NCBI GenBank assembly: GCA_024683775.1
Contig: GCA_024683775.1_4106.1
Source of the DNA: a phage
Direction: 5' to 3' (one strand)
Length of the DNA stretch: 64,000 nucleotides
Shown one piece after another: positions 3,372-58,598 of this stretch. Below the pieces are notes generated by a model. That model worked only from the letters and a program-made list of their open reading frames with translations. It made no database searches and was not told where the DNA came from. The number at the start of each line of letters is the position of its first letter. Position 1 is the stretch's first letter. A program made the position numbers and the translations under genes.

Positions 3372-3433
3372 TCATCCCTCCATTGGTATAATTATTATAA
3401 CGTATTTATTCTAGATAGGTAAAAAAGCACCTT

Positions 3434-32961: not shown

Positions 32962-34086
32962 TTAATTATCTAAGCCACCAATTACACTGAACTGTGTGGT
33001 AACGTCTGAACTATTATCTATGTAAGTTCTTCTACCAACATAATATAGTTGTCCTTTTGCTTGAATAAAAGTTACGGTCCCTGTATTAAATGTTATAATA
33101 TCATTGTATGTAATGTCAGGTGGTAGTGCTGCTGATAACGCAGTAACTTTACTTAATGCAGCACTAGTACTACCATTTATACCAGCAGCAATACTACCAG
33201 TACCATAGAACTTATTATCTTTACCAATGAATACGTTGGCTGATGCTTGTGTAGCTGATGTTATTGCCTTACCAATTTGGAATGCGGTTCCTATGGTGTA
33301 TGGTGTGCTCCTGGCAGCGTCTATGCTTTGTGTATATCCATCCCCTAGCTGACCATTAACTTTGTCACCACATGAGTATAGAGTACCATTGAGGCTGTAT
33401 ATGATCCCACGGTTAGAGAAGCTAACAGCTTCTGCATTAGTCCATACTGGTGCGGTGTATGAGTTTACACGACTCGCGGTAGTTCCTAGACCTAGTATAC
33501 CATATGTGTTATCACCACATCCAAACCATTGCCCAGAACTGTTTTGATAGAACACTGAACGTTCTGTTGATTCCATGCGTACAGCATCCACAGCACCACT
33601 TTTAACGAACGAAGTGGATGAGGATGTAGTACCAGTACCCAATGCACCATAAGTGTTTGTACCAATCGCATAGATTGATCCTAGTGGTGTCATAACACGT
33701 ATGCAGTTATATCCCAATTGAACTTTACATTCAAATAGGTTGTCCCATATTTCAGGAACAGCAGAAAATAAATTTGTAATTTCGAACCATGATGTTGTCG
33801 AACCAGTTAATCCTATACTGCTTTTGTTTCCTAAAATGAAAACAGTTTTGTCCTTCTTAATTATCCATGATGATAGGAAACCTATCTCACAGCTATGAAC
33901 ATTTGATTCTATTTGGGTAATATAATACTTAACTGTGTTATCACCCATGAATGCCGCAGCACCGGATGCAAAAAGGTTTCCAGTTTGTTTATTTAAAATG
34001 TAGTTATTGTTTCCATATACACTAACATCATAAGAACTTTCTTGTTTTTCGTTCCCATAATCAAATAACAATACGAAAGGTAACAT
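32962..34086 (-). CDS. MLPF-leader RCC1-like beta-propeller paralog A1 (FDYGN subtype)
   Basis: N-terminus MLPFVLLFDYGN; GDNTYGILGLG and GDKVNGQLGDG repeat motifs; AAGGAG RBS. Confidence 0.65.
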   Translation of the reverse strand: MLPFVLLFDYGNEKQESSYDVSVYGNNNYILNKQTGNLFASGAAAFMGDNTVKYYITQIESNVHSCEIGFLSSWIIKKDKTVFILGNKSSIGLTGSTTSWFEITNLFSAVPEIWDNLFECKVQLGYNCIRVMTPLGSIYAIGTNTYGALGTGTTSSSTSFVKSGAVDAVRMESTERSVFYQNSSGQWFGCGDNTYGILGLGTTASRVNSYTAPVWTNAEAVSFSNRGIIYSLNGTLYSCGDKVNGQLGDGYTQSIDAARSTPYTIGTAFQIGKAITSATQASANVFIGKDNKFYGTGSIAAGINGSTSAALSKVTALSAALPPDITYNDIITFNTGTVTFIQAKGQLYYVGRRTYIDNSSDVTTQFSVIGGLDN

Positions 34087-34163
34087 GATAAAATCTCCTT
34101 GTGTTATACTTTATTTAATCATTTTATAATGTACAATTTTACAGCGATTTAATTGAGGTACTC

Positions 34164-34814
34164 ATGAATAAAAGAAGTAAGTTCTATCAAGAATATTTCA
34201 CTAAACATAAACGATTCACAAAAAAATACTTTACATCATCCCACCGACCAGTTGCAAGTTACAAACGTCCTAATACTAACTATCTTGCTGGTGGCAAGTT
34301 TAGTGCAAAGTTCGAATTACTTATGCGTGAAAAGAATATCAAGATGCATTACGCAGAGACGAGAAAAAACTCATCAATTATTTGCTCTGATTTTCTTGAG
34401 TACGGTTGCTTAACTTATAAATTCAATGATGTATATTTGTATATTGATGTTGATTGTAACAGTACTCTTATGTTTGAGATTTCAATTCACCCAAATCACA
34501 ACCGTTATATAAACATTAACTTGATTGATAAAGTACTGATTGGTATATCTAGTACTGATGGTGGTGGATTTGAATTTATTGCTTCAAAATATGATGAAGA
34601 TTTCGTACTTTACCCAGTACTTGATGATGTGAAAGATATTCTCAATTCATTAAAAGGAAGTCAATACAAATTACCTGAAGAACAGCTATTTCAGTACTCA
34701 CTTATTCATGATGATATCGAGATATACTTAGAGTGTGCGAGAATCTTGGAGTATCTTTATAATGAACTAACAACAACTGGTAAAGTGACTGCATTCACAT
34801 TATATAATATGTAA
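34164..34814 (+). CDS. hypothetical protein embedded in the - strand array
   Basis: 216-aa ORF diverging from A1, with TATAAT-like box and GAGG RBS upstream. Confidence 0.5.
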   Translation: MNKRSKFYQEYFTKHKRFTKKYFTSSHRPVASYKRPNTNYLAGGKFSAKFELLMREKNIKMHYAETRKNSSIICSDFLEYGCLTYKFNDVYLYIDVDCNSTLMFEISIHPNHNRYININLIDKVLIGISSTDGGGFEFIASKYDEDFVLYPVLDDVKDILNSLKGSQYKLPEEQLFQYSLIHDDIEIYLECARILEYLYNELTTTGKVTAFTLYNM

Positions 34815-34821
34815 AAGAAAT

Positions 34822-34841
34822 GCCAGTACTCAAGTACTGGC
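34822..34841. terminator. array hairpin GCCAGTACT-CA-AGTACTGGC (bidirectional)
   Basis: perfect 9-bp stem built from two AGTACT sites, between convergent genes. Confidence 0.55.
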
Positions 34842-34847
34842 ATTATA

Positions 34848-35981
34848 TTAAACTGGTGGAGAATTATATGGCTCAAATTTATAAGTTGTCGTAGTAGTAC
34901 CAGCAAGGACGTTGTTAGCTAGTATGTACATAGTCCTGTAGTCGATTACCACCACAGTAATACTACCACCAAAAGCATAGTCTGTTATGTTATTAGTGTT
35001 GAATGGTAAATTAGATGAACTGGTCCATGTATTAGCTGTTGTGCTATTTGTACCATTGGAATAGCCGACACTAGATGTACCAGTTGTCCATAAGTTTCCA
35101 TCATTGAACAACGATACATGGTTAGCTGTATATGATTTATTAGGTATAGAACTATCAATTGGTGTATTCCAAACTTTAGTAACCCATGTTGTAACTTCTG
35201 TATTATTAGTAACGCCATTACCTAATGAACCATTTATTGGTATACCTCTTATATAAGAAGTGTTAGTACTAGGGTCAACATATCCAAATGTATATGTATC
35301 AAATGCAAATTGAAAACAATCAGAACTCGGTAATGTGTACAGTAATGTATATGAAGACGTGATTATTGATGAATTTGTACCGTTCACGCCTTGGTATAAA
35401 ATACCACTAGCCAATATTTGATTATTATTTTTTGTTATAGTGTTCATTAACGGATATGTTTTCACATCACGCACATCATTAGTCACATATGTTTGTGTTG
35501 ATAATGCAACTTTACTACCATTACCTATAACCCCTGTATTTGCACCACTCCCATAAAGTGAACCATCATTCAAAAGAACCATTGTAACATTACCATTTCC
35601 CGTAATTGTTTTAATATTACTAACATCCACCGCAGCAAATACAGTTGATGTTAAATCAGTGAAACGTGTATAATGTGATGTTGTGCCATTGATTGGTGTC
35701 GCAAAACCAGAATACAAAATTCTATTTTCTTTGGTAATAAGGAATGTTCCAGTAACACCGTTTGAATGGATATCAATAATATTATCGCCCATTAATACCC
35801 AATCACTTACGAATGTTGTACCAGCACCCAACCCATATGTCGTATTGTATCCACGTCCATACACTCTACCATCACTGAGTAATGTTACCACACATTGACC
35901 ACCACCACCAAGTATAACTTTTTGGATAGTACTCTTTACTTTTACATTCCCGTACTTAACCATTCTTGCAAAAGGTAACAT
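34848..35981 (-). CDS. MLPF-leader RCC1-like paralog A2 (VKYGN subtype)
   Basis: N-terminus MLPFARMVKYGN; Gly/Ser/Thr/Asn-rich repeats; only 12 nt downstream of A3. Confidence 0.65.
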   Translation of the reverse strand: MLPFARMVKYGNVKVKSTIQKVILGGGGQCVVTLLSDGRVYGRGYNTTYGLGAGTTFVSDWVLMGDNIIDIHSNGVTGTFLITKENRILYSGFATPINGTTSHYTRFTDLTSTVFAAVDVSNIKTITGNGNVTMVLLNDGSLYGSGANTGVIGNGSKVALSTQTYVTNDVRDVKTYPLMNTITKNNNQILASGILYQGVNGTNSSIITSSYTLLYTLPSSDCFQFAFDTYTFGYVDPSTNTSYIRGIPINGSLGNGVTNNTEVTTWVTKVWNTPIDSSIPNKSYTANHVSLFNDGNLWTTGTSSVGYSNGTNSTTANTWTSSSNLPFNTNNITDYAFGGSITVVVIDYRTMYILANNVLAGTTTTTYKFEPYNSPPV

Positions 35982-35993
35982 AATTATTCTCTC

Positions 35994-37112
35994 CTATATT
36001 ACTATTTTTTCTTCAGTATATATTAATGCTTTATCTGATGTAGTGTAGCTAGGTATTGGGAACAATCTACCTGCAACATAACATATGTCATTTTCTATAT
36101 AATATGATGAATATGTACTGTCAAAGAATATAGGCTCTATTGAAGTTGGTGCATTGATCATCTTAGTAAATGCTGGAACCGGTCCAGGTGTAAAACTTGC
36201 ATTTGTACTGGTAAACCCATAATTATCGGAAACTGCTGACACATAATAATCGGTTCCATTCTGGATTATTATTTTTGCTGCAACCGAACTACTATTATAA
36301 ACGATTTTAGGAAATGCAAATGTGGCTGCATTATATGTGAATGGTAACGAACAAGAAACTAAAGTTGCAGTTGCACCAGACACTGATGTTCCATATTTAT
36401 TGTTGACGTTTCCTCTGGCAAATACACCACTAGCGGTATTAAGCACTACAACAGCAACTGTTGCTGAATAACCCAAAACCCCTGTTGCAATTTGGGTAAA
36501 CCCAGTGGAACTAGGTATTTGACTAGCGTTTGGGTTTCCAGAACCATAAAGAACACCAGAATTAGTTAATGCCCATACGTTTGCATACATTAATTTGAAT
36601 GACTTGACATCACTGACTATCGTATTTTTAACAAAAGATGTACTACTACTTGGTGTGCTCATTCCAAATATATATTGCGTATTCGTACCAATGAACCACA
36701 ATTCTCCTAAGTTTGTCAGTACCCCTATACAGTTACGTAACGCATTAACTTGAACATCAATTATTGTACCAGTTACTGCATTAAAAATCGAACTACAATT
36801 AACAAATATATTACTTGTTGGATAACCAAATGCAGTAGTTTCACCGCTGCACATATACTGACCGTCTTTGAGTTTTAAAAATGTCCACGTAGGTGAATAG
36901 TAAAAGTCATCAACATTTTCATATATCAAAGTCCACTTATCAGCCGATGTAGTAACATCACCAAACTTACCATTTGTATTTGGTCCCGCAGCATATAATT
37001 TACCACTTGTTGTTAAGAATAAAATACCACTAGTTCCGTCCGTGACCATTTTACGTATTTTCGTAACTTCTCTTACATTTCCGTACTTAACCATTCTTGC
37101 AAAAGGTAACAT
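35994..37112 (-). CDS. MLPF-leader RCC1-like paralog A3 (VKYGN subtype)
   Basis: N-terminus MLPFARMVKYGN; preceded by conserved hairpin/A+T-box/AAGGAGG cassette. Confidence 0.65.
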   Translation of the reverse strand: MLPFARMVKYGNVREVTKIRKMVTDGTSGILFLTTSGKLYAAGPNTNGKFGDVTTSADKWTLIYENVDDFYYSPTWTFLKLKDGQYMCSGETTAFGYPTSNIFVNCSSIFNAVTGTIIDVQVNALRNCIGVLTNLGELWFIGTNTQYIFGMSTPSSSTSFVKNTIVSDVKSFKLMYANVWALTNSGVLYGSGNPNASQIPSSTGFTQIATGVLGYSATVAVVVLNTASGVFARGNVNNKYGTSVSGATATLVSCSLPFTYNAATFAFPKIVYNSSSVAAKIIIQNGTDYYVSAVSDNYGFTSTNASFTPGPVPAFTKMINAPTSIEPIFFDSTYSSYYIENDICYVAGRLFPIPSYTTSDKALIYTEEKIVI

Positions 37113-37157
37113 AATTCCCTCCTTTATTCTTTATACTATATTTAATCAAAAAGAAAA

Positions 37158-37176
37158 GCCAGTACTCTGTACTGGC
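37158..37176 (-). terminator. array cassette hairpin GCCAGTAC..GTACTGGC plus T-run
   Basis: inverted repeat read directly; T-rich tract follows on the - strand. Confidence 0.5.
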
Positions 37177-37182
37177 ACTATA

Positions 37183-38532
37183 TTACAACAAATGTATTTC
37201 TGTGAGTGTTTGATATGTTACACCGTTGTACACACCTCTCCAATATACCTTACCTTCAGTACTAACCACTAATAATCCATATGTTGTAAACCCAAGAGTA
37301 CCACCAACATACATAGCATCTTTGATTTTAATACCAATGTCTTCATATGTAAATGAAGCGACTGCTCCCGCTTGCCATGAAGGACTAGCATAGTAATCAC
37401 TATAAACACCATGTGCTTTATATATTGATGTTGTTCCGGGTTCAAAAATTACAGTTCCACAGTAGTTCATTCGTATTTTGGTACTGGATGAAGTTGGTAC
37501 ATTTATACCTACATCATCTTTAATCCCTGTAGTTAGGACGTTAAAACCACCCGCTACACGGTTGACGTCATTCGCACCGATTAGAAACATACCAACGTTG
37601 TAGCCCATATAATACACACTACTTGTACCATTCCAGAAAGAAAAACCACCACCATTACCACAGCGATATAGTTGTGAATTTGAGCAGTACATCATGCCTT
37701 CGTTTGTTGCATCAAAATCATCTGCTGTTCCGATTACAGCCACTGTAGTCCACGTTTTAATCACTTGGTTTGTACTAGCTGGTTTTTGTATACCATATCG
37801 TATATTATATCCCTTACCTACGATTGTACCATCTTCTAATTTGGCATAAAGTACAGGTCTATTACCAACAAAATACACATTATTATGTGACATGTCTATT
37901 GTGCATCTTAATGAAACTGCTTTTTGTGTCAATTGATTATCTTTAGTAAAAGAAGTAAAGTAGTAATCTGATGTGGAGTTGTTTATTAAACCTTGAATCG
38001 ACAAACCCATATACCAGATTTCACCATTAGTGTTCAATGCTGCCAAAATACAACTATATTTTGAAGTGTATGCTGGGGTTAATGATGTTGCTGGACCTTT
38101 ATCATATCCACCACAGAATACCATTTCCACAACTTCACCTACGTTAGAAAAATAAGAAGATACATTTATAAAACCATTTGTTATAAAAGGTGCTGTAGTT
38201 ATACTTGAATGTGTGAATATTCCATTTGCATATACACCACAAAAATGATATGAACCATCATTATCTTTAACTATTATTCCATTTGATAGTAGCCAAAAAT
38301 TGTTTACATTTTTTCGTACTAATTCAATTCCTGTACCATTGGTTGGTGTTATACCAAAAGAAACATATTTTGTTTGACCAATACCATATAAATTTCCATT
38401 TGATGCTAATATTGCACCAAACCAATTACCACCACCATTCCTATCATGACCCATACCAATGGAGTCGAATTTCTTTACAGTTGGAACATCTACTGTATTC
38501 CCATAATCAAATAATCTAACAAAAGGTAACAT
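37183..38532 (-). CDS. MLPF-leader paralog A4 (FDYGN subtype, 449 aa)
   Basis: N-terminus MLPFVRLFDYGN; longer, more divergent body. Confidence 0.6.
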   Translation of the reverse strand: MLPFVRLFDYGNTVDVPTVKKFDSIGMGHDRNGGGNWFGAILASNGNLYGIGQTKYVSFGITPTNGTGIELVRKNVNNFWLLSNGIIVKDNDGSYHFCGVYANGIFTHSSITTAPFITNGFINVSSYFSNVGEVVEMVFCGGYDKGPATSLTPAYTSKYSCILAALNTNGEIWYMGLSIQGLINNSTSDYYFTSFTKDNQLTQKAVSLRCTIDMSHNNVYFVGNRPVLYAKLEDGTIVGKGYNIRYGIQKPASTNQVIKTWTTVAVIGTADDFDATNEGMMYCSNSQLYRCGNGGGFSFWNGTSSVYYMGYNVGMFLIGANDVNRVAGGFNVLTTGIKDDVGINVPTSSSTKIRMNYCGTVIFEPGTTSIYKAHGVYSDYYASPSWQAGAVASFTYEDIGIKIKDAMYVGGTLGFTTYGLLVVSTEGKVYWRGVYNGVTYQTLTEIHLL

Positions 38533-38542
38533 ATATTCCTCC

Positions 38543-49478: not shown

Positions 49479-50651
49479 TTATGGTAAAATAATAGCTTGT
49501 AACGAACTCATACCCAATGTTGGAACACTCGCCTGTGGTGCTGGTGCATTCACTTTTGGTGATGAAACCGCATATGTCATTCCTGAACCCAAATCTGGAT
49601 CAAAAACTACAGCACAATAATTCCCACTATATATAAGTCCATTCTTGTATCCTTGTGCACTTTGAATGCATTTCGTGAACGTCCCAATATCTGTAGTGGC
49701 ATTTATTAAGTTCCTCCCACGATAACCGCAGGTGTATATGAAATTATCATCGCCTATGTACATACTAGAATCCCCAGCAGAACTACATAGATACGACATA
49801 TAAGCACGCATGTTTTTAGGAGCAACTGACAATGTACCAGCATAGAATTTATTATTCGAACCCGAAATATCACCATCACCCAAAGCACCAAAACTCCCCC
49901 AACCAGTACCATAATATCTCTTATCACTCAAGAATATAATACAGTTGTTATTACACATCTTGACTTGATATATCAATGAAGGATCAACCCCAGGGAATGA
50001 TTCAGTGTATGTTAGAACAGCCAGATCAGTACTAGCATTACATTGATGATATGTATTAGTACCAGAGGACAATATTGTACCATCAACTAATAGAATCCTC
50101 GAAGTGCCAGTACCAGCAATACAAGCAACAGCATTACCTGTATATATTTGTCTGAAAGTAAAGAAACCAACAGTCTTACTCCCCTGTCCACTCCAACCAG
50201 TATTATCAACACCACATGCCCATACTGAACCATCTTGCATGATCATCATTACACCATAACGTTCTATTGAAATATAGACAATCTTCGTAGTATCAACTGC
50301 ACTAAATCTAGAAGTTATATCAGTCCAAACCTTTACACTCACCGCCGTCGCACCGAAAGTAGGATCTTCCCCTGCTATCATTATCCTACCATTGTTAGTC
50401 AGATACATTGTCTGACTATAACCAGTACTACAAAACTTAACACTATCAGTCTCTGGAACTTTTAACCACTCGTTGTAACGTGTTACGTTAGTGTTATTAC
50501 CTAACTGATAATAGTTATTCATCCCAGATACATATAACACACCATCCTTTATTAAACTATAAGTCGCACTATAGTCACTACAGGTATAACGTGTACCCAC
50601 AGGTGGCTCAACGACGTTCCCATAATCAAACATTCTAACAAAAGGTAACAT
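49479..50651 (-). CDS. MLPF-leader paralog A14 (FDYGN subtype)
   Basis: N-terminus MLPFVRMFDYGN. Confidence 0.65.
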   Translation of the reverse strand: MLPFVRMFDYGNVVEPPVGTRYTCSDYSATYSLIKDGVLYVSGMNNYYQLGNNTNVTRYNEWLKVPETDSVKFCSTGYSQTMYLTNNGRIMIAGEDPTFGATAVSVKVWTDITSRFSAVDTTKIVYISIERYGVMMIMQDGSVWACGVDNTGWSGQGSKTVGFFTFRQIYTGNAVACIAGTGTSRILLVDGTILSSGTNTYHQCNASTDLAVLTYTESFPGVDPSLIYQVKMCNNNCIIFLSDKRYYGTGWGSFGALGDGDISGSNNKFYAGTLSVAPKNMRAYMSYLCSSAGDSSMYIGDDNFIYTCGYRGRNLINATTDIGTFTKCIQSAQGYKNGLIYSGNYCAVVFDPDLGSGMTYAVSSPKVNAPAPQASVPTLGMSSLQAIILP

Positions 50652-50724
50652 AATAAAATCTCCGTAATTAAATTATATAGTATTTACAAAAAATACCAGT
50701 ACATATTTCAGTACTGACCTATTA

Positions 50725-51846
50725 TTAAAAGGGCAACGGTAACTCAGTAAAAGTACTTACGTCCGGTAAACCATACATTGAATTAGCATCACCACAGTAA
50801 TACCACTTCGTAGAATCATGTACCACCGATAAACGCTGTGCACATAACACTTCCTGTATGTCATTAAACACCATCGGGACTAACTCATATGTATCCGCAT
50901 ATGAAGATTCACCACCACTCGCATGAAAAGTATTCGTCCCAGCATAAAATAACTGATTAGTGTTCTTACCCACAGCAAATGTCATCAATATCCCATCATT
51001 CGCCCATAAAGAAGAAAACTTATCAACACTACCAGAAAGCTCTGTGTAAGTACTCGTAATGGCACTCGCAGCCGCCGCATTACCCATCTGTTTATTCAAG
51101 TTCTGTCCAGCAATAAAATATCTCGTGCGTGCACTAGAATCAGTATATAATAACCCAGTGTTCGTAGTCATCATTCCAATGTCCTTAATCGTCATACCAG
51201 TCTGTGAATAACTTAGATACGAAGTTAAACTACCATTATTACCCAACGAACCGTTATCACTCATGCCACAACGATGTAATATACCACTTGTATCAACGTA
51301 GATAGTACTAACTAAACTCGTATACAACTCTTGTACATTATTCGCAATAAACACAGCAGTCGCCTTATTAGTAACCCCACCAAATGATAGGTTATTATCA
51401 AATCCCTTAGCGTATAATTGATTATTAGTAGTAACTAACCCAATCGCGTAATAAGATATTTTCATATCCCTTACAGTACTCAAATCTACTACCCCAAATT
51501 GATGCGTAACATCTGTCCATGTGAAAATCTGTGCACTACCAACACCACCCGTTTCAAACCATTTGTCACCACAGTACAATATGCGATTATCCTTAGTAAA
51601 GATAACTGTTACCAATCCACTACCACACGCAAACTTTACATCACTTCTAACCTTCGTCCAATCAAGTACATAGGTAGTGGTGTTATTACCTATACCTAAC
51701 TTGCCATAACGGTTATAACCACGCACCCACAAATCACCACTCTTAGTAATTAATAGTAATGCGTCTCCTGTACTTATTATTCGAAATCCCGAACTAGGAT
51801 CAGGTACTTCATTTCCATAATCAAACATTCTAACAAAAGGTAACAT
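50725..51846 (-). CDS. MLPF-leader paralog A15 (FDYGN subtype)
   Basis: N-terminus MLPFVRMFDYGN; body closely related to A18. Confidence 0.65.
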   Translation of the reverse strand: MLPFVRMFDYGNEVPDPSSGFRIISTGDALLLITKSGDLWVRGYNRYGKLGIGNNTTTYVLDWTKVRSDVKFACGSGLVTVIFTKDNRILYCGDKWFETGGVGSAQIFTWTDVTHQFGVVDLSTVRDMKISYYAIGLVTTNNQLYAKGFDNNLSFGGVTNKATAVFIANNVQELYTSLVSTIYVDTSGILHRCGMSDNGSLGNNGSLTSYLSYSQTGMTIKDIGMMTTNTGLLYTDSSARTRYFIAGQNLNKQMGNAAAASAITSTYTELSGSVDKFSSLWANDGILMTFAVGKNTNQLFYAGTNTFHASGGESSYADTYELVPMVFNDIQEVLCAQRLSVVHDSTKWYYCGDANSMYGLPDVSTFTELPLPF

Positions 51847-51891
51847 AATTCCCTCCTTTATTCATTATACTATATTTAATCAAAAATAAAA

Positions 51892-51910
51892 GCCAGTACA
51901 GAGTACTGGC
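51892..51910 (-). terminator. array cassette hairpin
   Basis: GCCAGTACAGAGTACTGGC inverted repeat. Confidence 0.45.
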
Positions 51911-51917
51911 ATAGTAT

Positions 51918-53045
51918 TCAAAAAGGTAAATCAATTTGCTTAGTAATAATAGTATCTAACGGTATTGAACACAATGAGAAATTCTTTCCACCCGTATTTT
52001 CAGGATTATATCCATTCATCCATACATTATTACCTTCGTAAAATGTATTCCAGTATAAAGACCCACTATATCGTGTATTCGAATTGAACGATGTAAAATT
52101 GAATTCTTGAAATGCTGTAAAATATGGAAGGGAACTTGAACTACTTCCCGTAAATGGGGTATGCCCAGTTGCTATTAGTTTGTTTGTATCTGCATTAATT
52201 AAAAATACAACACTAGTCGAATAGTCCAACGAATCAGGATGATATATATTACTCATATCACCTATAGTAAAACCAACATCAAAAACTTTACTATGTGCAC
52301 CACTACCAGCAAAAGTAGTTCCAGTTGCATATATTTTATTATCAGATGTTATCATTACAAAACCAACACCAGAAACAAAACTGCATTTTATATCATAAGA
52401 TATATCATCAAACAACGGAACAAATGTGGTTGCATCACCCGATGTTGCTTTAACTTGAAAGCTGTTATTTGAACCTGAACCATATACAGTTCCATCGTTT
52501 TTAATCTTAAACAATGTATCGCCAAGGTAACCGCCAAATATATTATCCACATTAGTGTCAAGTACAGTCCACGCTGAAACATAATTTTTATGTCCTAAAC
52601 CTAATGTACCACTTCGATTCCATCCTCTTCCATAAAGTGTTCCGTCTTTCATTAATATAAATGCTGTATAACCACATAACATTTTTTTAATTTGGGTAAC
52701 ATCTATACCAGTGAAATACACAGCCCAGTCAGTATATCCTTGTTGGAAAGTATTAGAATTCGTGAATGCATATGTTGAACCTGAACCATATATTTTATCA
52801 CCTTTAATAACAACGGAAAACGATCCTAACCATAAGTCATCAACTTCAGTTGTGATTTGTTGAACTGCTCCTAACGATACAAACTGTGTACTTAAACCCG
52901 CATTATAGTTTGAATCTTCACCGTGTGCATATACAGTGCCATCTTGCATTAGAAACATTTCAAGAGTGTAACTAACAACACTTTTCTTTATATTATTAAC
53001 TTCGATTATATTCCCATAATCAAACATTCTAACAAAAGGTAACAT
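51918..53045 (-). CDS. MLPF-leader paralog A16 (FDYGN subtype)
   Basis: N-terminus MLPFVRMFDYGN. Confidence 0.65.
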   Translation of the reverse strand: MLPFVRMFDYGNIIEVNNIKKSVVSYTLEMFLMQDGTVYAHGEDSNYNAGLSTQFVSLGAVQQITTEVDDLWLGSFSVVIKGDKIYGSGSTYAFTNSNTFQQGYTDWAVYFTGIDVTQIKKMLCGYTAFILMKDGTLYGRGWNRSGTLGLGHKNYVSAWTVLDTNVDNIFGGYLGDTLFKIKNDGTVYGSGSNNSFQVKATSGDATTFVPLFDDISYDIKCSFVSGVGFVMITSDNKIYATGTTFAGSGAHSKVFDVGFTIGDMSNIYHPDSLDYSTSVVFLINADTNKLIATGHTPFTGSSSSSLPYFTAFQEFNFTSFNSNTRYSGSLYWNTFYEGNNVWMNGYNPENTGGKNFSLCSIPLDTIITKQIDLPF

Positions 53046-53087
53046 AATTCCCTCCTTTATTCATTATACTATATTTAATCAAAAAAA

Positions 53088-53106
53088 GCCAGTATCAAGT
53101 ACTGGC
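53088..53106 (-). terminator. array cassette hairpin
   Basis: GCCAGTATCAAGTACTGGC inverted repeat. Confidence 0.45.
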
Positions 53107-53114
53107 ATATTAAT

Positions 53115-54263
53115 TTACTGCACAAATGACATATCGACTTCGGTATAATTAAGAACGTTCTGTCCAGCACTACCACCCATTACTACAAATGAAGCACCCG
53201 AATAATATAACTTCGAAGTGTCAGTAAGTATAAGTGAACCAGATGGAGTGCGTACCAAATTACACGAAGTATTAAACGAAGTATATGAAGGAGTATAGGA
53301 GTACTGATTATTATTATTACCAACACCTAATTGCCCAAACCTATTCGATCCAGAAGCATATAGAACTTCATCTGCTTTGACAATATGTGATGCCATGTTA
53401 CCAACACAAGTATATAGAGTATAAACTCCTGAACTCAATAATGTCGGAGTTTTATATTGTATATCAGTAGAAGAGGAAGTACCACCTGTACCAAATTCGT
53501 TCCCATATTGTGCACCGAACTGTTTACCACAAGCGTACAAATTATTATCCGATTTGATAAAAAATGTACTCTGATAACTTACATTAAAATCTATAACATC
53601 CGAAGAAATCATCGTCACCCCAGTAATAGAAGTTTGATTGCCCGTGCCCAACTGGTAGTAATAGTTAAAACCACAACCCCATAAAGTATTATCTTCTCGC
53701 AAATAAATGTTACCAACAGCCTTTTTAACCGAAGTTATAGTATCTACTCTTTTGAATGTGTTAAAAGAATTAATGTTTGTGCCATCACCAAATGATGATA
53801 TGTTCGATATATTGTTAGCTCCACAACAATACAATGTACCATCGTTTGTTATCAAATTCACCTTCATATCATAAAAACTACTCATGTATTTTATATCAGA
53901 AACATTAATACCACTTGATGTTATCCACGTAGTACAGTCCGTCCACAAAGTTTTTCTATCAGTTACACCAGTGAATGCCTTCGTGTTACCAGTGATAAAA
54001 ACTTTTCCAGTACCTTTCTCTTCATACAATTGACAATCACTACTGTTATCTTCCAATAGAACTCGTTTAACATTCTCCGCACAAAGAATAAATTTACTCG
54101 ATGCTACACCTGTACCAGTACCCCAATTCGTCGCAGAAGATGCATACAACTTGTCAGTATAAGTATCATGAAGATACATAGAATCACTGGAATATATTTT
54201 ATAACGACCAGAGTTGGTAGGAGCTTCATTTCCATAATCAAACATTCTTACAAAAGGTAACAT
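53115..54263 (-). CDS. MLPF-leader RCC1-like paralog A17 (FDYGN subtype)
   Basis: start set at MLPFVRMFDYGN at 54263; GSNRFGQLGVG motif. Confidence 0.65.
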   Translation of the reverse strand: MLPFVRMFDYGNEAPTNSGRYKIYSSDSMYLHDTYTDKLYASSATNWGTGTGVASSKFILCAENVKRVLLEDNSSDCQLYEEKGTGKVFITGNTKAFTGVTDRKTLWTDCTTWITSSGINVSDIKYMSSFYDMKVNLITNDGTLYCCGANNISNISSFGDGTNINSFNTFKRVDTITSVKKAVGNIYLREDNTLWGCGFNYYYQLGTGNQTSITGVTMISSDVIDFNVSYQSTFFIKSDNNLYACGKQFGAQYGNEFGTGGTSSSTDIQYKTPTLLSSGVYTLYTCVGNMASHIVKADEVLYASGSNRFGQLGVGNNNNQYSYTPSYTSFNTSCNLVRTPSGSLILTDTSKLYYSGASFVVMGGSAGQNVLNYTEVDMSFVQ

Positions 54264-54307
54264 ATTCCCTCCCTTATTCATTATACTATATTTAATCAAA
54301 AAGAAAA

Positions 54308-54327
54308 GCCAGTACTCAAGTACTGGC
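54308..54327 (-). terminator. array cassette hairpin
   Basis: GCCAGTACTCAAGTACTGGC perfect inverted repeat. Confidence 0.5.
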
Positions 54328-54333
54328 CTGTAT

Positions 54334-55470
54334 TTAAATTATTGTTGGTAATGGTAATGGTATAAATTCATCACTCGATGGCAAACCATATAACGTAGTT
54401 GCATTTCCAGAATAATACCATCCAGTTGAATCTTGCACTATAGATAGATAGGCTAACGATACCACCTTTGTTATATCATTAAACCCGTGTGGTACTTCTT
54501 TGAATGCAGATGAATATTCAACACCAGGATCACCAGAAGATAGTGTATTGTTAGTACCAGCATAATATAAAGTATTGCCATCTGTGCTTATAGCAAAAGA
54601 AAGAACAGAGTTATTCATATCACTCCACAAATCCCTAAACCTGCCTCTATATCCGGTTAATTCTGTATACGAATATACGTTTGTGGTATTTGAAGAAGAA
54701 TTACCTAGTTGATAATTTCTATTTTGACCTGCTATAACATATCTAGTGATACCATTAGTATCATAATATAATATACCAGAGTTTAATGTTGACATACCAA
54801 CTGCACATTCGGATGCAAATTCGGGAGCAGAGTACAAATTATAAGAAGTTAAATTTGTGCTAGTACCCAATGCTCCAGTATTGCTTATACCACAGCGGTA
54901 GTAACCACCAGTAGTACTAGAATATATAGTACCAGATAGAGAAGTGTAGAATTTTGAAACATTTGACGCAACTAATACAGCATTAACTTTGCTTGTTGAA
55001 CCACCAAATGATTGGTTATTATCATATCCTTTAGCATATAATCTATTATCATTTGTAAGTAATCCTACACAATAATAAGTTATTTTCATTTCACGAACTG
55101 TGCTTAGATTCACTGCACTAAATTGTGTCGTAACATCTTTCCATGTAACAACTTTAGAACTTGTCGAACCACCAGATTCAAACCATTGATCACCACAGTA
55201 GAAAATTTTATTATCTACAGTTAATACAACGCATACTAAATTACTAGCACAAGCAAACTTAACATCATCTCTAACTTTAGTCCACTCGGTTACATTCACT
55301 ATAGTATCAGTTCCTATACCTAATTTGCCATACGCATTATTACCACGCACCCATAATTCATTATCCTCGGTTATTAGTAATAATGAATTAGCACCTGCAA
55401 CAATATCACGTATTTTTAGTTTATCTGGTGCTACGTTCCCGTACTTAACCATTCTTGCAAAAGGTAACAT
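54334..55470 (-). CDS. MLPF-leader paralog A18 (VKYGN subtype), first gene of the array
   Basis: N-terminus MLPFARMVKYGN; extended -10-like TGATATAAT and AAGGAG RBS upstream. Confidence 0.65.
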   Translation of the reverse strand: MLPFARMVKYGNVAPDKLKIRDIVAGANSLLLITEDNELWVRGNNAYGKLGIGTDTIVNVTEWTKVRDDVKFACASNLVCVVLTVDNKIFYCGDQWFESGGSTSSKVVTWKDVTTQFSAVNLSTVREMKITYYCVGLLTNDNRLYAKGYDNNQSFGGSTSKVNAVLVASNVSKFYTSLSGTIYSSTTGGYYRCGISNTGALGTSTNLTSYNLYSAPEFASECAVGMSTLNSGILYYDTNGITRYVIAGQNRNYQLGNSSSNTTNVYSYTELTGYRGRFRDLWSDMNNSVLSFAISTDGNTLYYAGTNNTLSSGDPGVEYSSAFKEVPHGFNDITKVVSLAYLSIVQDSTGWYYSGNATTLYGLPSSDEFIPLPLPTII

Positions 55471-55520
55471 ATTTCTTCTCCTTTATTCATTATATCATAT
55501 TTACCTCAAAAAGAAAACCC

Positions 55521-55549
55521 TTGACACCCTTTCAGTACTGATGTACTAT
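55521..55549 (+). promoter_or_regulatory. sigma70-like promoter TTGACA-N17-TACTAT in the divergent hub
   Basis: hexamers read directly, 25 nt upstream of the first mini-protein gene. Confidence 0.5.
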
Positions 55550-55574
55550 AGAAGGAATATAAGGAGAACTGCAC

Positions 55575-55802
55575 ATGACAAATACTTTTAAGTACTACCT
55601 CAATACTCTAAATGAACTAGAGTACGCGAAGTTTCTCGCGGATAGTTCGTGGCTAATTGAGCTAAAAACACATAACAGTACTGGATGTAACCTTATGCTG
55701 AACAATGCACTTGATACCCTTGTAGTGAGTATTTTACACAGCACCATCTGCGGGGATAGCAATAAACAATTATCAAAAATCTTAGTACTGGTAGCTCTAT
55801 GA
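55575..55802 (+). CDS. mini-protein paralog C1
   Basis: 75 aa; N-terminal MTNTFKYYLNTL; AAGGAG RBS. Confidence 0.5.
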   Translation: MTNTFKYYLNTLNELEYAKFLADSSWLIELKTHNSTGCNLMLNNALDTLVVSILHSTICGDSNKQLSKILVLVAL

Positions 55803-56011
55803 ACACTATGAACATTGAACAGTACTACATTGATGCACTACCAACAAAAGGTCTACGAGAAAGCCTACTGTATACACAAAATAATTATATAAACTTCAAA
55901 CATTGTCCTAAACTCTTGAACTCGTACAGGAATAATAAAATAAGAAATGCTGTACAAGGGGTAGAAAGTATGCAATACTATTACATCCTAACCCTTTTAA
56001 TCGAGCACTAA
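55799..56011 (+). CDS. mini-protein paralog C2
   Basis: 70 aa; N-terminal ...EQYYIDALP; ATGA overlap. Confidence 0.5.
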   Translation: MNTMNIEQYYIDALPTKGLRESLLYTQNNYINFKHCPKLLNSYRNNKIRNAVQGVESMQYYYILTLLIEH

Positions 56012-56012
56012 T

Positions 56013-56198
56013 ATGTATAAAGAATTCTACTGTAGTAAGCTGCACAAACAATACAGAGATTCATTTCCCAATGAACCTATGGATATGAATAGTCCCTTTT
56101 ATAAATTTGACTTCAGACTGGAGACACGTTATGCAATAGAACATCAATTTCCTGAAACTAAGTACTTATCTATCATGAACCTCATCTTTAAGTTCTAA
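56013..56198 (+). CDS. mini-protein paralog C3
   Basis: 61 aa; N-terminal MYKEFY. Confidence 0.45.
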   Translation: MYKEFYCSKLHKQYRDSFPNEPMDMNSPFYKFDFRLETRYAIEHQFPETKYLSIMNLIFKF

Positions 56199-56209
56199 AA
56201 GAGTACTAT

Positions 56210-56422
56210 ATGAAAACTATGAACATACACCAGTACTACTTAGATATTCTCCCTAAAGATGTACAGTTCATCCTTAAACAAGAATACAGTACTTTAAAAA
56301 ACCTTAAAAGAACCGCACCGAATGTATTAATCCTGCACCAAGAAAATGTAGTTGATAATATTCTACAAGGTGTACCAGGGACCGAGTACTTTAACATAAT
56401 AAGGCTAATTACATTACCATGA
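56210..56422 (+). CDS. mini-protein paralog C4
   Basis: 70 aa; close relative of C2. Confidence 0.5.
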   Translation: MKTMNIHQYYLDILPKDVQFILKQEYSTLKNLKRTAPNVLILHQENVVDNILQGVPGTEYFNIIRLITLP

Positions 56423-56604
56423 ATCATATATTATACTATTACCAAAATCTATCCGACAGGGACAAGTACACCCACAACTCCAATGTATGGTACTACAAAC
56501 GCGGTAGTATAAGAGACAAACAACATTACTTCTGTATTGCTATAAAAGAAGCACTAACAACTAAGTACACGTACAGAGCAGTACTGAAACTTATTGATAT
56601 GTAA
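56419..56604 (+). CDS. mini-protein paralog C5
   Basis: 61 aa; C-terminal YTYRAVLKLIDM. Confidence 0.45.
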   Translation: MNHILYYYQNLSDRDKYTHNSNVWYYKRGSIRDKQHYFCIAIKEALTTKYTYRAVLKLIDM

Positions 56605-56614
56605 AGAGAATACT

Positions 56615-56797
56615 ATGAGCATTGAATTGTACTTAAGTAAATTACAGCCTGGCGATAGATTCATCTACAATAAGTTCGAATTCAACTACAAGAACGGGAG
56701 CAACAAATATCGTCGAGGATACCTATATACAAGCACAAGAGATGCACAAAACGAAAAGTACACATACAGAGAAGTACTTAAACTAATCTCTATTTGA
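56615..56797 (+). CDS. mini-protein paralog C6
   Basis: 60 aa from ATG 56615; C-terminal YTYREVLKLISI. Confidence 0.45.
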   Translation: MSIELYLSKLQPGDRFIYNKFEFNYKNGSNKYRRGYLYTSTRDAQNEKYTYREVLKLISI

Positions 56798-56805
56798 GGT
56801 AATAT

Positions 56806-56991
56806 ATGAATACATTTGAGTACTATACAAATAAACTATCTATGCCTGAAAGATCTCATCTCTATGTGTGGAGAAATGCGTATAAAAGCGGCAATAAACT
56901 TATACAAAGAAATTCCCTTACAGTGTGTACAAATTTAATTAAAGCAGAGTACCGCACATATATTGAAGTACTCAAACTGATAGCAATATAA
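56806..56991 (+). CDS. mini-protein paralog C7
   Basis: 61 aa; MNTFEYY...EVLKLIAI. Confidence 0.5.
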   Translation: MNTFEYYTNKLSMPERSHLYVWRNAYKSGNKLIQRNSLTVCTNLIKAEYRTYIEVLKLIAI

Positions 56992-56999
56992 GGTACTCT

Positions 57000-57179
57000 A
57001 TGCAAGAATTCTATATCTATAACCTCCAGCACAAAGATAGATACAACTATAATAAATTCCAAAGGTACTACACAGTCGGGAACAAAAGAGATAAAAAACG
57101 TTATCTACTCTCGTGTACAGTAGAAGCACAAAACGAAAAGTACACGTACAGAGAAGTACTTAAACTAATCTTAATCTAA
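57000..57179 (+). CDS. mini-protein paralog C8 (59 aa, below ORF-track cutoff)
   Basis: hand translation MQEFYIYNLQHK...YTYREVLKLILI. Confidence 0.45.
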   Translation: MQEFYIYNLQHKDRYNYNKFQRYYTVGNKRDKKRYLLSCTVEAQNEKYTYREVLKLILI

Positions 57180-57186
57180 GGTAGAC

Positions 57187-57375
57187 ATGAACACTTTTGA
57201 GTACTACTTCAATAAACTAAACCACATAGAACAAAGTATGCACAACTCATTTATTCAGCACCATCAATCATCTGCACATGGAATTAAAAATATATCGATT
57301 GAGATTATCACTACCCGTGTACTGTCATCTGAACGTTATATGTATATTGATGTACTGAAACTCATCTCTATGTAA
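57187..57375 (+). CDS. mini-protein paralog C9
   Basis: 62 aa; MNTFEYY...DVLKLISM. Confidence 0.5.
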   Translation: MNTFEYYFNKLNHIEQSMHNSFIQHHQSSAHGIKNISIEIITTRVLSSERYMYIDVLKLISM

Positions 57376-57383
57376 GGAATAAT

Positions 57384-57563
57384 ATGCAAGAATACTATAT
57401 AGAACACATAAGCATTAAAGACCGTTTCATGTACGACACCTTCGTGAAGTACTACAACCTGGCAACTAATAGTACTAAAAATATTAATCTCAATAGCTGC
57501 ATTCATCACGCACTAACAAAAGATAATCCCTTCAGGGAAATCCTCGCTCTCGCATCTGTATAA
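57384..57563 (+). CDS. mini-protein paralog C10 (59 aa, below ORF-track cutoff)
   Basis: hand translation MQEYYIEHISIKDRF... Confidence 0.4.
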   Translation: MQEYYIEHISIKDRFMYDTFVKYYNLATNSTKNINLNSCIHHALTKDNPFREILALASV

Positions 57564-57574
57564 AGGAAAACCAA

Positions 57575-58234
57575 ATGAAACTTAATGCACACAGCAAACA
57601 ATACCTTAAGCACTTTAAATACCTCAACAGTATTCAAGCAGAATCTTTTACACCAGCATATACGTATCACCCAAATGTACTAAAGAAACGAAATAAAAAG
57701 AAAAAATCCAGAAATGTTCTCGTATCTAAGAACCTCAAATCGTACTTGAAGAAAAATAGTATAGCTCTTGCTTTTATTAATATCTATAATACTGATTTAA
57801 AAGTATTGAGTACTAATACCAGCACAAAAGCACTAAAGAATGCATCTATCTATATACACATTGATAATATCCCGTGCACTATAATTCTATCTTTCGGGAA
57901 TGTATACTTCTTCGGGAATTGTAATAGCACCCATGATATCAGTACTGCACAATTCCAAATCGGCGATATGTACTGCATGGGTTCAGAAAAAATACACGAT
58001 AACATGCACTTCTTCCAAAAGCAACGTACTAACGAAACTGATACAGTACTGCAATTCCTCAAAGAACTAGAACACAAAGAATTATCCGAGGAAGAAGAAT
58101 TCATGTACAGTACTGTAATCGATAATCCAGGACTCTATAAAAACGCGTACAAACTAACAAAACATGTACAGGAACTTATCAGTACTGATAAGAAATTTCA
58201 TCACCTCATTACGTATATTTCAAACTATGTATAA
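57575..58234 (+). CDS. hypothetical 219-aa protein inserted in the mini-protein array
   Basis: ORF with basic KKRNKKKKSR patch; unrelated to flanking paralogs. Confidence 0.5.
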   Translation: MKLNAHSKQYLKHFKYLNSIQAESFTPAYTYHPNVLKKRNKKKKSRNVLVSKNLKSYLKKNSIALAFINIYNTDLKVLSTNTSTKALKNASIYIHIDNIPCTIILSFGNVYFFGNCNSTHDISTAQFQIGDMYCMGSEKIHDNMHFFQKQRTNETDTVLQFLKELEHKELSEEEEFMYSTVIDNPGLYKNAYKLTKHVQELISTDKKFHHLITYISNYV

Positions 58235-58409
58235 AGAATACTACAAAGATAAAATCCCAATGCATCTACAACACCATATACCAAACGTTGCATTGGGTAT
58301 CAAAGATCACGCAAAGATAATGTTCCAACAATGTACTAAGTACACGCTCATATACGATGATAATCCATATATGCTGTACTACGTAGTAATGCTAACATTC
58401 AGGTACTAA
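58227..58409 (+). CDS. mini-protein paralog C11
   Basis: 60 aa from ATG 58227; MYKEYYKDKIP... Confidence 0.45.
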   Translation: MYKEYYKDKIPMHLQHHIPNVALGIKDHAKIMFQQCTKYTLIYDDNPYMLYYVVMLTFRY

Positions 58410-58410
58410 T

Positions 58411-58590
58411 ATGAATACTTATAAAGAATTCTACCTCTCGTACCTTAATTCCGATATAGTAACATCCAATACATTCAGTACTAAAATTATCTATAATGAA
58501 GTAATGAAAGAATGTATTAAAGGTGCTATTAACCCTAAAGATACGTATGACTTGTACTATGCAGTACTAACCCTTGTTTTCACGAAATAA
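58411..58590 (+). CDS. mini-protein paralog C12 (59 aa, below ORF-track cutoff)
   Basis: hand translation MNTYKEFYLSYL... Confidence 0.4.
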   Translation: MNTYKEFYLSYLNSDIVTSNTFSTKIIYNEVMKECIKGAINPKDTYDLYYAVLTLVFTK

Positions 58591-58598
58591 CACATAAT

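Follow-up and report, generated by a model that had tools for sequence, protein, structure and literature searches.

A tandem array of propeller genes with a common leader peptide appears to be shuffled as cassettes in Asteriusvirus jumbo coliphages

How does a phage come to carry 18 tandem genes whose products begin with nearly the same twelve residues and then diverge? The question is raised by a 64,000-nucleotide (nt) stretch of DNA (contig GCA_024683775.1_4106.1 of assembly GCA_024683775.1, analysed as a whole and called here the window) whose source group is the Asteriusvirus (121Q/PBECO4-like) jumbo coliphages, with Escherichia coli as host. Megablast searches with the region first noticed and with the whole array gave matches confined to Asteriusvirus phages, in 33 Escherichia and 4 Salmonella records. 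The genes, A1 to A18, are numbered by ascending coordinates and transcribed from A18 towards A1, and the intact members encode RCC1-like proteins of 369-449 amino acids (aa). An earlier note on this DNA, located at 50725-55470, had proposed two interleaved leader subtypes, recent duplication and recombination between leaders and bodies; that interval covers A15 to A18, and the feature spans 32962-55470. We consider, with a probability of roughly 0.7, that the locus is an array of shuffled cassettes encoding tagged propellers that are probably associated with the virion.

No other part of these otherwise near-identical jumbo phage genomes varies nearly as much as the array locus. The adjacent 24 kb are covered completely by EC.P1 at 99.2% identity and to 86-97% by five further close relatives, identity across these six ranging from 98.5 to 99.2%, and two other relatives reach 93% coverage at 97.5% identity and 72% at 98.9%. 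A 24.5-kb query containing the array is covered to at most 31% by any phage, and by EC.P1 to just 18%.

All 18 genes were found with the starts and leader memberships that the earlier note had listed. Eleven leaders read MLPFVR[ML]FDYGN (V5/F8/D9, or VFD; genes A1, A4, A6, A9, A10, A11 and A13-A17, with L6 in A1) and are called F-type here, and the seven V-type leaders read M[LI]PFAR[MI]VK[YF]G[ND] (residues A5/V8/K9, or AVK; genes A2, A3, A5, A7, A8, A12 and A18). Positions 5, 8 and 9 co-vary perfectly among the 18 genes, with no intermediates. The order of the types along the array, FVVFVFVVFFFVFFFFFV, forms 10 runs, a number that fits random order (P<= 0.69, P>= 0.51), so that the two types are interleaved rather than clustered, as had been claimed. 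In the alignment of the 18 proteins the first 12 columns include four invariant and four nearly invariant ones; the remaining ~365 columns also hold four invariant ones, with a mean column identity of 26%.

The bodies behind these leaders have a median amino-acid identity of 27% among the 18 paralogues, and every pair except A15/A18 and A7/A10 stays at or below 32%. The two exceptions are the distant pairs that had been singled out as similar, and they do stand apart, with 50% identity over the whole body for A15/A18 and 37-38% for A7/A10, including the GMN..SELG and FHYIKDG.YYRCG stretches; within both pairs the leader types are discordant. The number of synonymous substitutions per synonymous site (dS) is 1.67 for A15/A18 and 1.48 for A7/A10, and no 30-codon window of the closest pairs exceeds 72% nucleotide identity. 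Since synonymous sites are saturated even in these pairs, the bodies are old paralogues, and a recent duplication is ruled out by dS values of 1.5-1.7 together with the lack of any high-identity tract between paralogue bodies. Repeated duplication thus describes an array of 18 paralogues well enough, but the word recent, used in the earlier note, was wrong. Each body nevertheless appears to be maintained by purifying selection, because the median ratio of nonsynonymous to synonymous substitution rates (dN/dS) for orthologues in other phages is 0.21.

Two discrete leader forms with three perfectly linked positions might be taken for ancient subfamilies that have co-diverged with their bodies, their interleaving being due to scrambling of gene order, and the V5/acidic versus A5/other class is indeed kept in five of the six bodies common to the window phage and EJP2. 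Body similarity is, however, not higher within than between leader types (difference -22 to -24, upper-tail p 0.99, hence no positive association), and the nearest body neighbour has the other leader type in 17 of 18 cases (p = 0.0005), leaving one of the same type. The discordance within A15/A18 and A7/A10 argues in the same direction, and orthologues, for example those of A17, A11, A4, A6, A15 and A18, switch type between phages. Strict co-divergence of leaders and bodies, the outcome named beforehand as refuting recombination, is therefore contradicted, and we find this explanation scarcely credible. The inverse tendency, a negative association between leader type and body similarity, was rejected as well: it is not robust, since it vanishes once the hub genes A18 and A10 are left out, and EJP2, Turkey3, BF17 and J do not show it.

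The case for recombination is carried by a comparison with the arrays of nine related phages, including 121Q, G17, PBECO4, EJP2, Turkey3, BF17 and J, in which bodies with at least 70% amino-acid identity, many of them above 95%, were taken as orthologous; CMSTMSU was excluded from the orthologue analysis because its record is full of frameshifts. Bodies form 42 groups across eight phages, with gene order and content shuffled. Identical or nearly identical bodies are found behind different leaders. The A15 body is 99-100% identical at the nucleotide level to that of EJP2, where the VFD leader is replaced by AMT (MLPFARMMTYGN) and the promoter cassette differs; the A18 body is 98-100% identical to that of G17, with AVK here and VLN (MLPFVRMLNYGN) there. 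A17 has VFD in the window, AVK in 121Q (leader MLPFARMVKYGN, body 91-97% identical in nucleotides) and AMN in G17 and PBECO4 (leader MLPFARMMNYGN). In the A6 pair with G17 the identity is 90% over the 60 nt upstream, drops to 83% in the leader, rises to 100% in the linker and is 92-95% in the body. Other junctions are sharp: A4 and its Turkey3 orthologue are 100% identical in nucleotides from about +70 on, whereas their leaders and upstream sequences are unrelated, and the 400 nt upstream of A4 are homologous to junctions of 121Q and G17 that enter other bodies. Conversely, 121Q_19432 and G17_15409 are 100% identical over the 400 nt upstream of the ATG and 85% identical in the leader, and their bodies are unrelated. 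Blocks common to the window and EJP2 or G17 start at the leader end or in the cassette and stop 50-100 nt past the stop codon, in the next cassette or leader. The recombination between leaders and bodies that the earlier note had surmised is thus strongly supported by orthologous bodies 99-100% identical behind different leaders and cassettes, and by sharp leader breakpoints in relatives.

Leaders and bodies also differ in pace. Among orthologues, 96% body identity is accompanied by 86% leader identity, leader identity dropping faster to a plateau of ~79-80%. The mean number of leader differences over the 12 positions is 2.60 between orthologues of different clades, 2.77 between non-orthologues and 2.15 between non-orthologues of the same clade. 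Leader variants thus track the phage clade and not the body, and these alignments indicate that the tag evolves in concert by exchange among paralogues, bodies being exchanged between genomes. We hold the recombination and cassette part of this explanation to be highly probable. Bodies A13, A14 and A15 differ from those of EJP2 by a dS of merely 0.004-0.07, which points to recent horizontal exchange of individual cassettes between lineages; the dS for A9 is 0.53, and EJP2 does not figure in the list of the 14 best matches to the flanking 24 kb.

The conserved unit extends upstream of the leader. A cassette of nearly the same sequence lies ahead of most genes, in which a hairpin, GCCAGTAC(n)GTACTGGC, and a T-run are followed either by TTGATTAAATATAGTATAATGAATAAAGGAGGnAAT directly before the ATG (type 1) or by GTAAATACnnTATAAT...GGAGATTTTAnTT (type 2, found before A13 and A14 and also ahead of most EJP2 array genes). 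Nine near-identical 26-nt promoter/Shine-Dalgarno boxes and seven exact CCAGTAC...GTACTGG hairpins were counted, all in the array or at its edges, with 0 expected. A terminator-like site follows each gene in 49400-55700, and the annotators of G17 also called terminators at its array. The promoter-like box, [A/G/T]TAAATA-N3-TATAAT, comes with a Shine-Dalgarno sequence and has no -35 element; a scan for the sigma-70 -35/-10 consensus found 30 sites against 32.2 expected and no match at the cassettes, and sigma-70 promoters there were rejected. A box of the same bipartite type, ATAAATA-CGT-TATAAT, stands before a virion structural gene (PHROG 10468), which is the one minus-strand gene that the window has besides the array. 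This motif suggests that the array genes and the structural gene have a common phage-specific, possibly late, promoter class, and the lack of a -35 element together with the likeness to the structural-gene box makes it improbable that the array promoter is an early one. Five genes, A2, A4, A7, A11 and A12, have no cassette and are coupled directly to the preceding gene; all five keep the leader.

Outside the window the tag is found on other proteins. Kelch-repeat propellers of 296-315 aa with the same tag fill array slots in J, BF17, EJP2 and Turkey3 (Pfam scores of 94 and 59 bits in J and Turkey3 against a 50-bit cut-off; a 296-aa member of Turkey3, at 42 bits, is under it). The phage J copy is annotated as a virion structural protein, and the tag also heads a 245-aa protein without Pfam match. 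A profile of the 36 N-terminal residues, searched against 1.84 billion proteins with clusters at 50% identity as representatives, retrieved 80 representatives, of which 78 have the strict tag at their predicted N-terminus or close to it, and a further one has MFPF. Among 75 tagged representatives scanned, 72 are RCC1-like and one is a Kelch protein; the tag is portable across folds. M1, P3, F4, Y10 and N12 never vary in the 78 representatives and R6 and G11 hardly do, whereas positions 2, 5, 7, 8 and 9 vary. Relatives and public data together yield about 45 leader variants, whose differences lie mostly at positions 5, 8 and 9 and also at 2 and 7. A strict division into two tag classes (V5 with an acidic residue 9, A5 with a basic one) is ruled out by ALE, ALK, VIK, VFN and further combinations in public data. 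The two subtypes of the window are therefore no fixed classes but a snapshot specific to the clade of this phage. An exact-pattern scan of IMG/VR for leader copies elsewhere in the genome returned the 121Q array only, plus one chance antisense match on an unrelated contig.

Conservation that runs unbroken from the intergenic cassette into the 36-nt leader, rare codons included, might alternatively reflect a nucleic-acid element, such as a translation-initiation or regulatory region or a recombination linker, whose encoded peptide has no function. The GGG codon occurs in 13 of 18 leaders as against 0.11 in bodies, TAC and AAG are fixed in V-type leaders, leader DNA conservation exceeds codon bias, and the breakpoints show that the leader stretch acts as a recombination site. 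Against this, the leader tolerates synonymous variants (AGA/AGG, GGG/GGA, AAT/AAC, TAT/TAC, CCT/CCA/CCG, TTA/TTG); position 7 stays M, L or I despite multi-nucleotide changes; and the six nucleotides that separate the A8 and A18 leaders amount to four synonymous and two conservative replacements. These three observations indicate that the constraint acts at the peptide level. The amino-acid pattern moreover persists in 78 cluster representatives with 50% identity or less, and the cassette-less coupled genes retain it, so that we judge a purely nucleic-acid role improbable.

What the tag is attached to was assessed by Pfam scans of 14 array members and AlphaFold2 models of two, A18 and A15. PF00415 and/or PF13540 score above the gathering threshold in A18, A17, A16, A13, A12, A8, A7 and A1; A15, A3 and A2 have PF25390 only or sub-cut-off matches, PF25390 being under its 150-bit cut-off in every member; A4 has no Pfam match, yet it matches PHROG 4219. 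The best PDB folds given by Foldseek are UVR8, the HERC2 RLD, RPGR and RCC1, with template modelling (TM) scores of 0.65-0.77 and E-values of 1e-15 to 1e-19. The ~360-aa bodies are accordingly predicted to be RCC1-type beta-propellers. Both models are confident overall (predicted TM score of 0.86 for A18 and 0.87 for A15) and show the tag as a tail of low confidence that is not part of the propeller, residues 1-16 in A18 and 1-19 in A15, with a predicted local distance difference test (pLDDT) value of 43-48 over the first 10-20 residues (48 for residues 1-10 of A18, below 50 for residues 1-19 of A15). Propellers often close by pairing of their N- and C-terminal strands, and a conserved C-terminal motif, F-x-x-[IL]-x-L-P, is present in the array proteins, so that the leader might be an integral strand of such a 'velcro' closure, conserved for folding alone. 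This is very unlikely: in both models the leader lies outside the confident propeller with pLDDT below 50, the same tag heads Kelch propellers of different blade architecture, and a structural strand is not expected to be near-invariant, because the other blades are conserved at ~25%.

Evidence for a place in the particle comes from a relative. Virion mass spectrometry of phAPEC6 (Wagemans et al. 2020, PMC7247149) lists eight proteins of ~30-42 kDa, gp003, 005, 006, 007, 009, 010, 549 and 551, six of them under 'DNA condensation protein' and two under 'hypothetical protein'. From their names, their sizes and gene numbers that lie at the ends of the record, we infer that these are array members. 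For a second virion proteome, that of JP4, the supplements had no usable entry for array proteins.

These results can be assembled into a model. Each unit consists of a terminator hairpin, a promoter-like box with its Shine-Dalgarno sequence, the 36-nt leader encoding M-[LI]-P-F-x-R-[MIL]-x-x-Y-G-N, and a propeller body of ~360 aa, RCC1-like or, in some relatives, Kelch. Recombination, for which the conserved cassette and leader supply the homology, exchanges bodies, changes their order and adds or removes them, within one genome as well as between co-infecting relatives. The same exchanges spread leader variants among paralogues, making the free positions 5, 8 and 9 look genome-specific, and this clade has in that way ended with two common variants, VFD and AVK, irrespective of body relatedness. 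So far the model follows from the sequence comparisons; its further steps are deduced. At the protein level the tag would be a structurally free N-terminal docking peptide that brings propellers into the virion, like the T4 capsid-targeting sequence, and the array would then be a polymorphic virion-borne binding or effector set under diversifying pressure. Docking into the virion is the most economical model, because it accounts for a free and invariant N-terminal peptide, its portability across folds, the structural-gene promoter box and the turnover of bodies; by analogy with T4, we give a virion-targeting role of the tag somewhat less than an even chance. A bolder version, which we regard as doubtful, is that the tag brings hypervariable, horizontally traded propeller effectors, with no fewer than 75 distinct bodies in public data, into the particle, from which they would be delivered along with the DNA. 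The array would in that case be the jumbo-phage counterpart of the T4 internal proteins, and positions 5, 8 and 9 a genome-specific code co-evolving with the docking partner.

The tag could instead anchor the propellers on the virion exterior, for example at the base of appendages on the 'hairy' capsid or the tail, where they would serve as adhesins or accessories of receptor binding; the locus would then govern host range and would not encode internal, ejected proteins. Tandem genes with a common N-terminus and a variable C-terminus resemble those of multi-tailspike phages, hypervariable content is typical of host-recognition genes, and among bacterial RCC1-like homologues domains for secretion or of the cell surface are frequent (such as type IX secretion system, FN3 and immunoglobulin domains). 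The virion association in phAPEC6 would suit this placement too, as would the unassigned fibres and decoration densities of that phage (PMC7247149). A 12-residue tail with a linker of ~8 residues is however short for a stable external anchor, the A18 and A15 models contain no fibrous or trimerisation domain, and the phAPEC6 peptide counts are low. We consider an exterior anchor unlikely.

Several points weigh against the shuffled, virion-docked array as a whole. The phAPEC6 virion proteins are represented by 1-5 unique peptides each (PMC7247149), and for this reason co-purifying contaminants may be among them. The tag does not resemble the capsid-targeting sequence of T4, and behind it the 18 sequences show no consistent L/I-x-E protease site; the docking function of the tag is our own deduction, and the class and timing of the promoter are read from a motif. 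On the side of recombination, the window alone leaves it unproven, two discordant close pairs having a chance probability of ~0.25. Point mutation could account for some of the leader differences, for example the change from FD to FN in EJP2 A13, and where both flanks are conserved, as in the A6/G17 and A18/G17 comparisons, short-patch conversion and crossover are indistinguishable.

Table 1. Coordinates of the array genes, their cassettes and neighbouring features (window coordinates unless a record label is given).
Feature	Coordinates	Strand	Remarks
Whole array A1-A18	32962..55470	-	tandem RCC1-like beta-propeller genes; ORF (open reading frame) list, translations, Pfam, PHROG 4219
A18	54334..55470 (leader DNA 55435-55470)	-	378 aa; leader MLPFARMVKYGN; AlphaFold2 propeller
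Cassette A18/A17	54264..54333	-	hairpin GCCAGTACTTGAGTACTGGC + T-run, TTGATTAAATATAGTATAATGAATAAGGGAGGGAAT directly before ATG; terminator-like site 54329-54306
A17	53115..54263 (leader 54228-54263)	-	382 aa; leader MLPFVRMFDYGN
Cassette A17/A16	53046..53114	-	terminator hairpin, promoter-like TAAATATAGTATAAT, Shine-Dalgarno
A16	51918..53045 (leader 53010-53045)	-	375 aa; leader MLPFVRMFDYGN; identical to phage J orthologue
Cassette A16/A15	51847..51917	-	type 1; terminator-like site
A15	50725..51846 (leader 51811-51846)	-	373 aa; leader MLPFVRMFDYGN; closest paralogue A18
Cassette A15/A14	50652..50724	-	type 2; hairpin + GTAAATACTATATAATTTAATTACGGAGATTTTATT before ATG
A14	49479..50651	-	390 aa; F-type leader
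A13	48273..49403	-	376 aa; F-type leader; first of coupled A13-A12-A11 unit without internal cassettes
A12	47060..48262	-	400 aa; leader MLPFARMVKFGN
A11	45942..47051	-	369 aa; leader MLPFVRLFDYGN
A10	44693..45872	-	F-type leader; 1-nt frameshift after codon 43; closest paralogue A7
A9	43444..44622	-	392 aa; F-type leader
A8	42214..43371	-	385 aa; leader MIPFARIVKYGN
A7	41035..42204	-	389 aa; leader MLPFARMVKYGD; translationally coupled to A8
A6	39794..40963	-	389 aa; F-type leader
A5	38533..39722	-	V-type leader; frameshift near codon 259; listed ORF 38928-39722
A4	37183..38532	-	449 aa; leader MLPFVRLFDYGN; coupled to A5 remnant
A3	35994..37112	-	372 aa; V-type leader
A2	34848..35981	-	377 aa; V-type leader; coupled to A3
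Sole interruption of the array	34164-34814	+	ORF of 216 aa, PHROG 34359
A1	32962..34086	-	374 aa; leader MLPFVLLFDYGN; own divergent promoter region
Tagged Kelch propellers	L001 32781-33686; L003 11043-11933, 12007-12954	-	Kelch repeats
Virion structural gene	2214-3371	-	PHROG 10468
Promoter-like box of the structural gene	3394-3408	-	ATAAATA-CGT-TATAAT
Second tandem family	55575-60372	+	~22 small ORFs of 59-77 aa
ORF-poor stretch	60400-62400		~2 kb
Tandem repeats	62201-62350; 61482-61553		53 bp x 2.8 (97% matches); 24 bp x 3

Two array genes are frameshifted (Table 1). A10 does belong to the 18 genes, as the earlier note had it, but the ORF list is incomplete there and gives a 358-aa 3' part alone because of the single-nucleotide shift, an extra C in ATGCGTGGA-C-GGAAACC at ~45741-45743, downstream of which the frame is open for 358 codons; since EC.P1 has the identical sequence (260/261 nt), this is not a read error. 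The remainder of A5 runs on in another frame to ~38540, as seen by tblastn against the phage J orthologue and by alignment of the frameshift site. The extra base is also present in 121Q and G17, and the phage J gene is intact at 392 aa. As the downstream part is still 82% identical at the protein level, the A5 frameshift could reflect recent decay or be programmed.

Turkey3, BF17 and EC.P1 also have the plus-strand ORF between A2 and A1 annotated in the corresponding position. At the other end, the second tandem family adjoins the propeller array directly; its small ORFs fall into two or three paralogous groups with N- and C-terminal motifs in common (for example MNxHKEYY...LLIYRY and ...YTYREVLKLI), and relatives have them too. 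Beyond it, the repeat-bearing ORF-poor stretch gave no tRNA and no credible Rfam match in tRNA and Rfam scans.

How does the array compare with what has been described? The annotated RCC1-like array of phAPEC6, 121Q and PBECO4 is the same locus and family. The phAPEC6 paper (Wagemans et al. 2020, PMC7247149) reports eleven RCC1-like proteins, several of them in virions, and names tandem duplication among the ways in which jumbo genomes attain their size; its accessible part gives no account of the 12-residue tag, its variants, the cassettes, the Kelch members or leader-centred breakpoints. The Sharanji paper on Asteriusvirus does not mention the array, the fEgEco12 paper only notes two 'chromosome condensation regulators' that differ strongly between close phages, and the literature searched yielded no account of the tag, of its variants or of mosaicism centred on the leader. 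A locus annotated merely as "regulator of chromosome condensation" thus becomes a defined modular system with mapped recombination joints, and modular shuffling explains why it is the most variable part of near-identical genomes. Were the tag a virion-incorporation signal, it would offer a handle of 12 residues by which proteins of choice could be loaded into the particle of a 350-kb phage, and a direct route to the function of the propellers, be it anti-defence, host takeover or adhesion; the genome-specific tag variants are a natural experiment for finding the docking partner through co-variation.

RCC1, UVR8, the HERC2 RLD and RPGR have in common with the array the Pfam RCC1 repeats and the predicted RCC1-type propeller. 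Identity to them is however only 13-18%. The host has neither Ran nor nucleosomes, and the database labels 'regulator of chromosome condensation' and 'DNA condensation protein', which would imply a role as Ran guanine nucleotide exchange factor or in the condensation of chromatin or DNA, are transferred names. Unlike the multiple receptor-binding proteins of branched tailspikes or fibres, the array bodies are single propellers with a flexible N-terminus of ~20 residues, and neither fibre nor beta-helix is predicted.

The organisation of the locus recalls the promoter-early stem-loop (PeSL) elements, which serve T4-type phages as mobile regulatory cassettes (Arbiol et al. 2010, PMC2839356; Comeau et al. 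2014, PMC4122927). In each system a repeat that lies between the genes of a hyperplastic region combines a stem-loop terminator with a promoter and a Shine-Dalgarno sequence, and in each the differences between close relatives break at the repeats, giving a modular shuffling of genes. In contrast to PeSLs, the promoter box of the array has no sigma-70 -35 element and resembles the structural-gene box, the repeat continues for 36 nt within the gene, where it encodes a conserved peptide tag, and shuffling affects paralogues that have one fold, whereas with PeSLs it affects unrelated ORFans.

The T4 internal proteins IPI, IPII and IPIII, together with their polymorphic relatives, have an N-terminal capsid-targeting sequence as their sole common feature (Rao and Black 2010, PMC3012670). 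The two sets differ in that no consistent L/I-x-E follows the array tag and that the array bodies are propellers of ~40 kDa, whereas those of T4 are small basic proteins. They are alike in the short conserved N-terminal peptide carried by highly diverse proteins of a variable locus, and in their presence in virions, which for the array is indicated by the phAPEC6 mass spectrometry of relatives.

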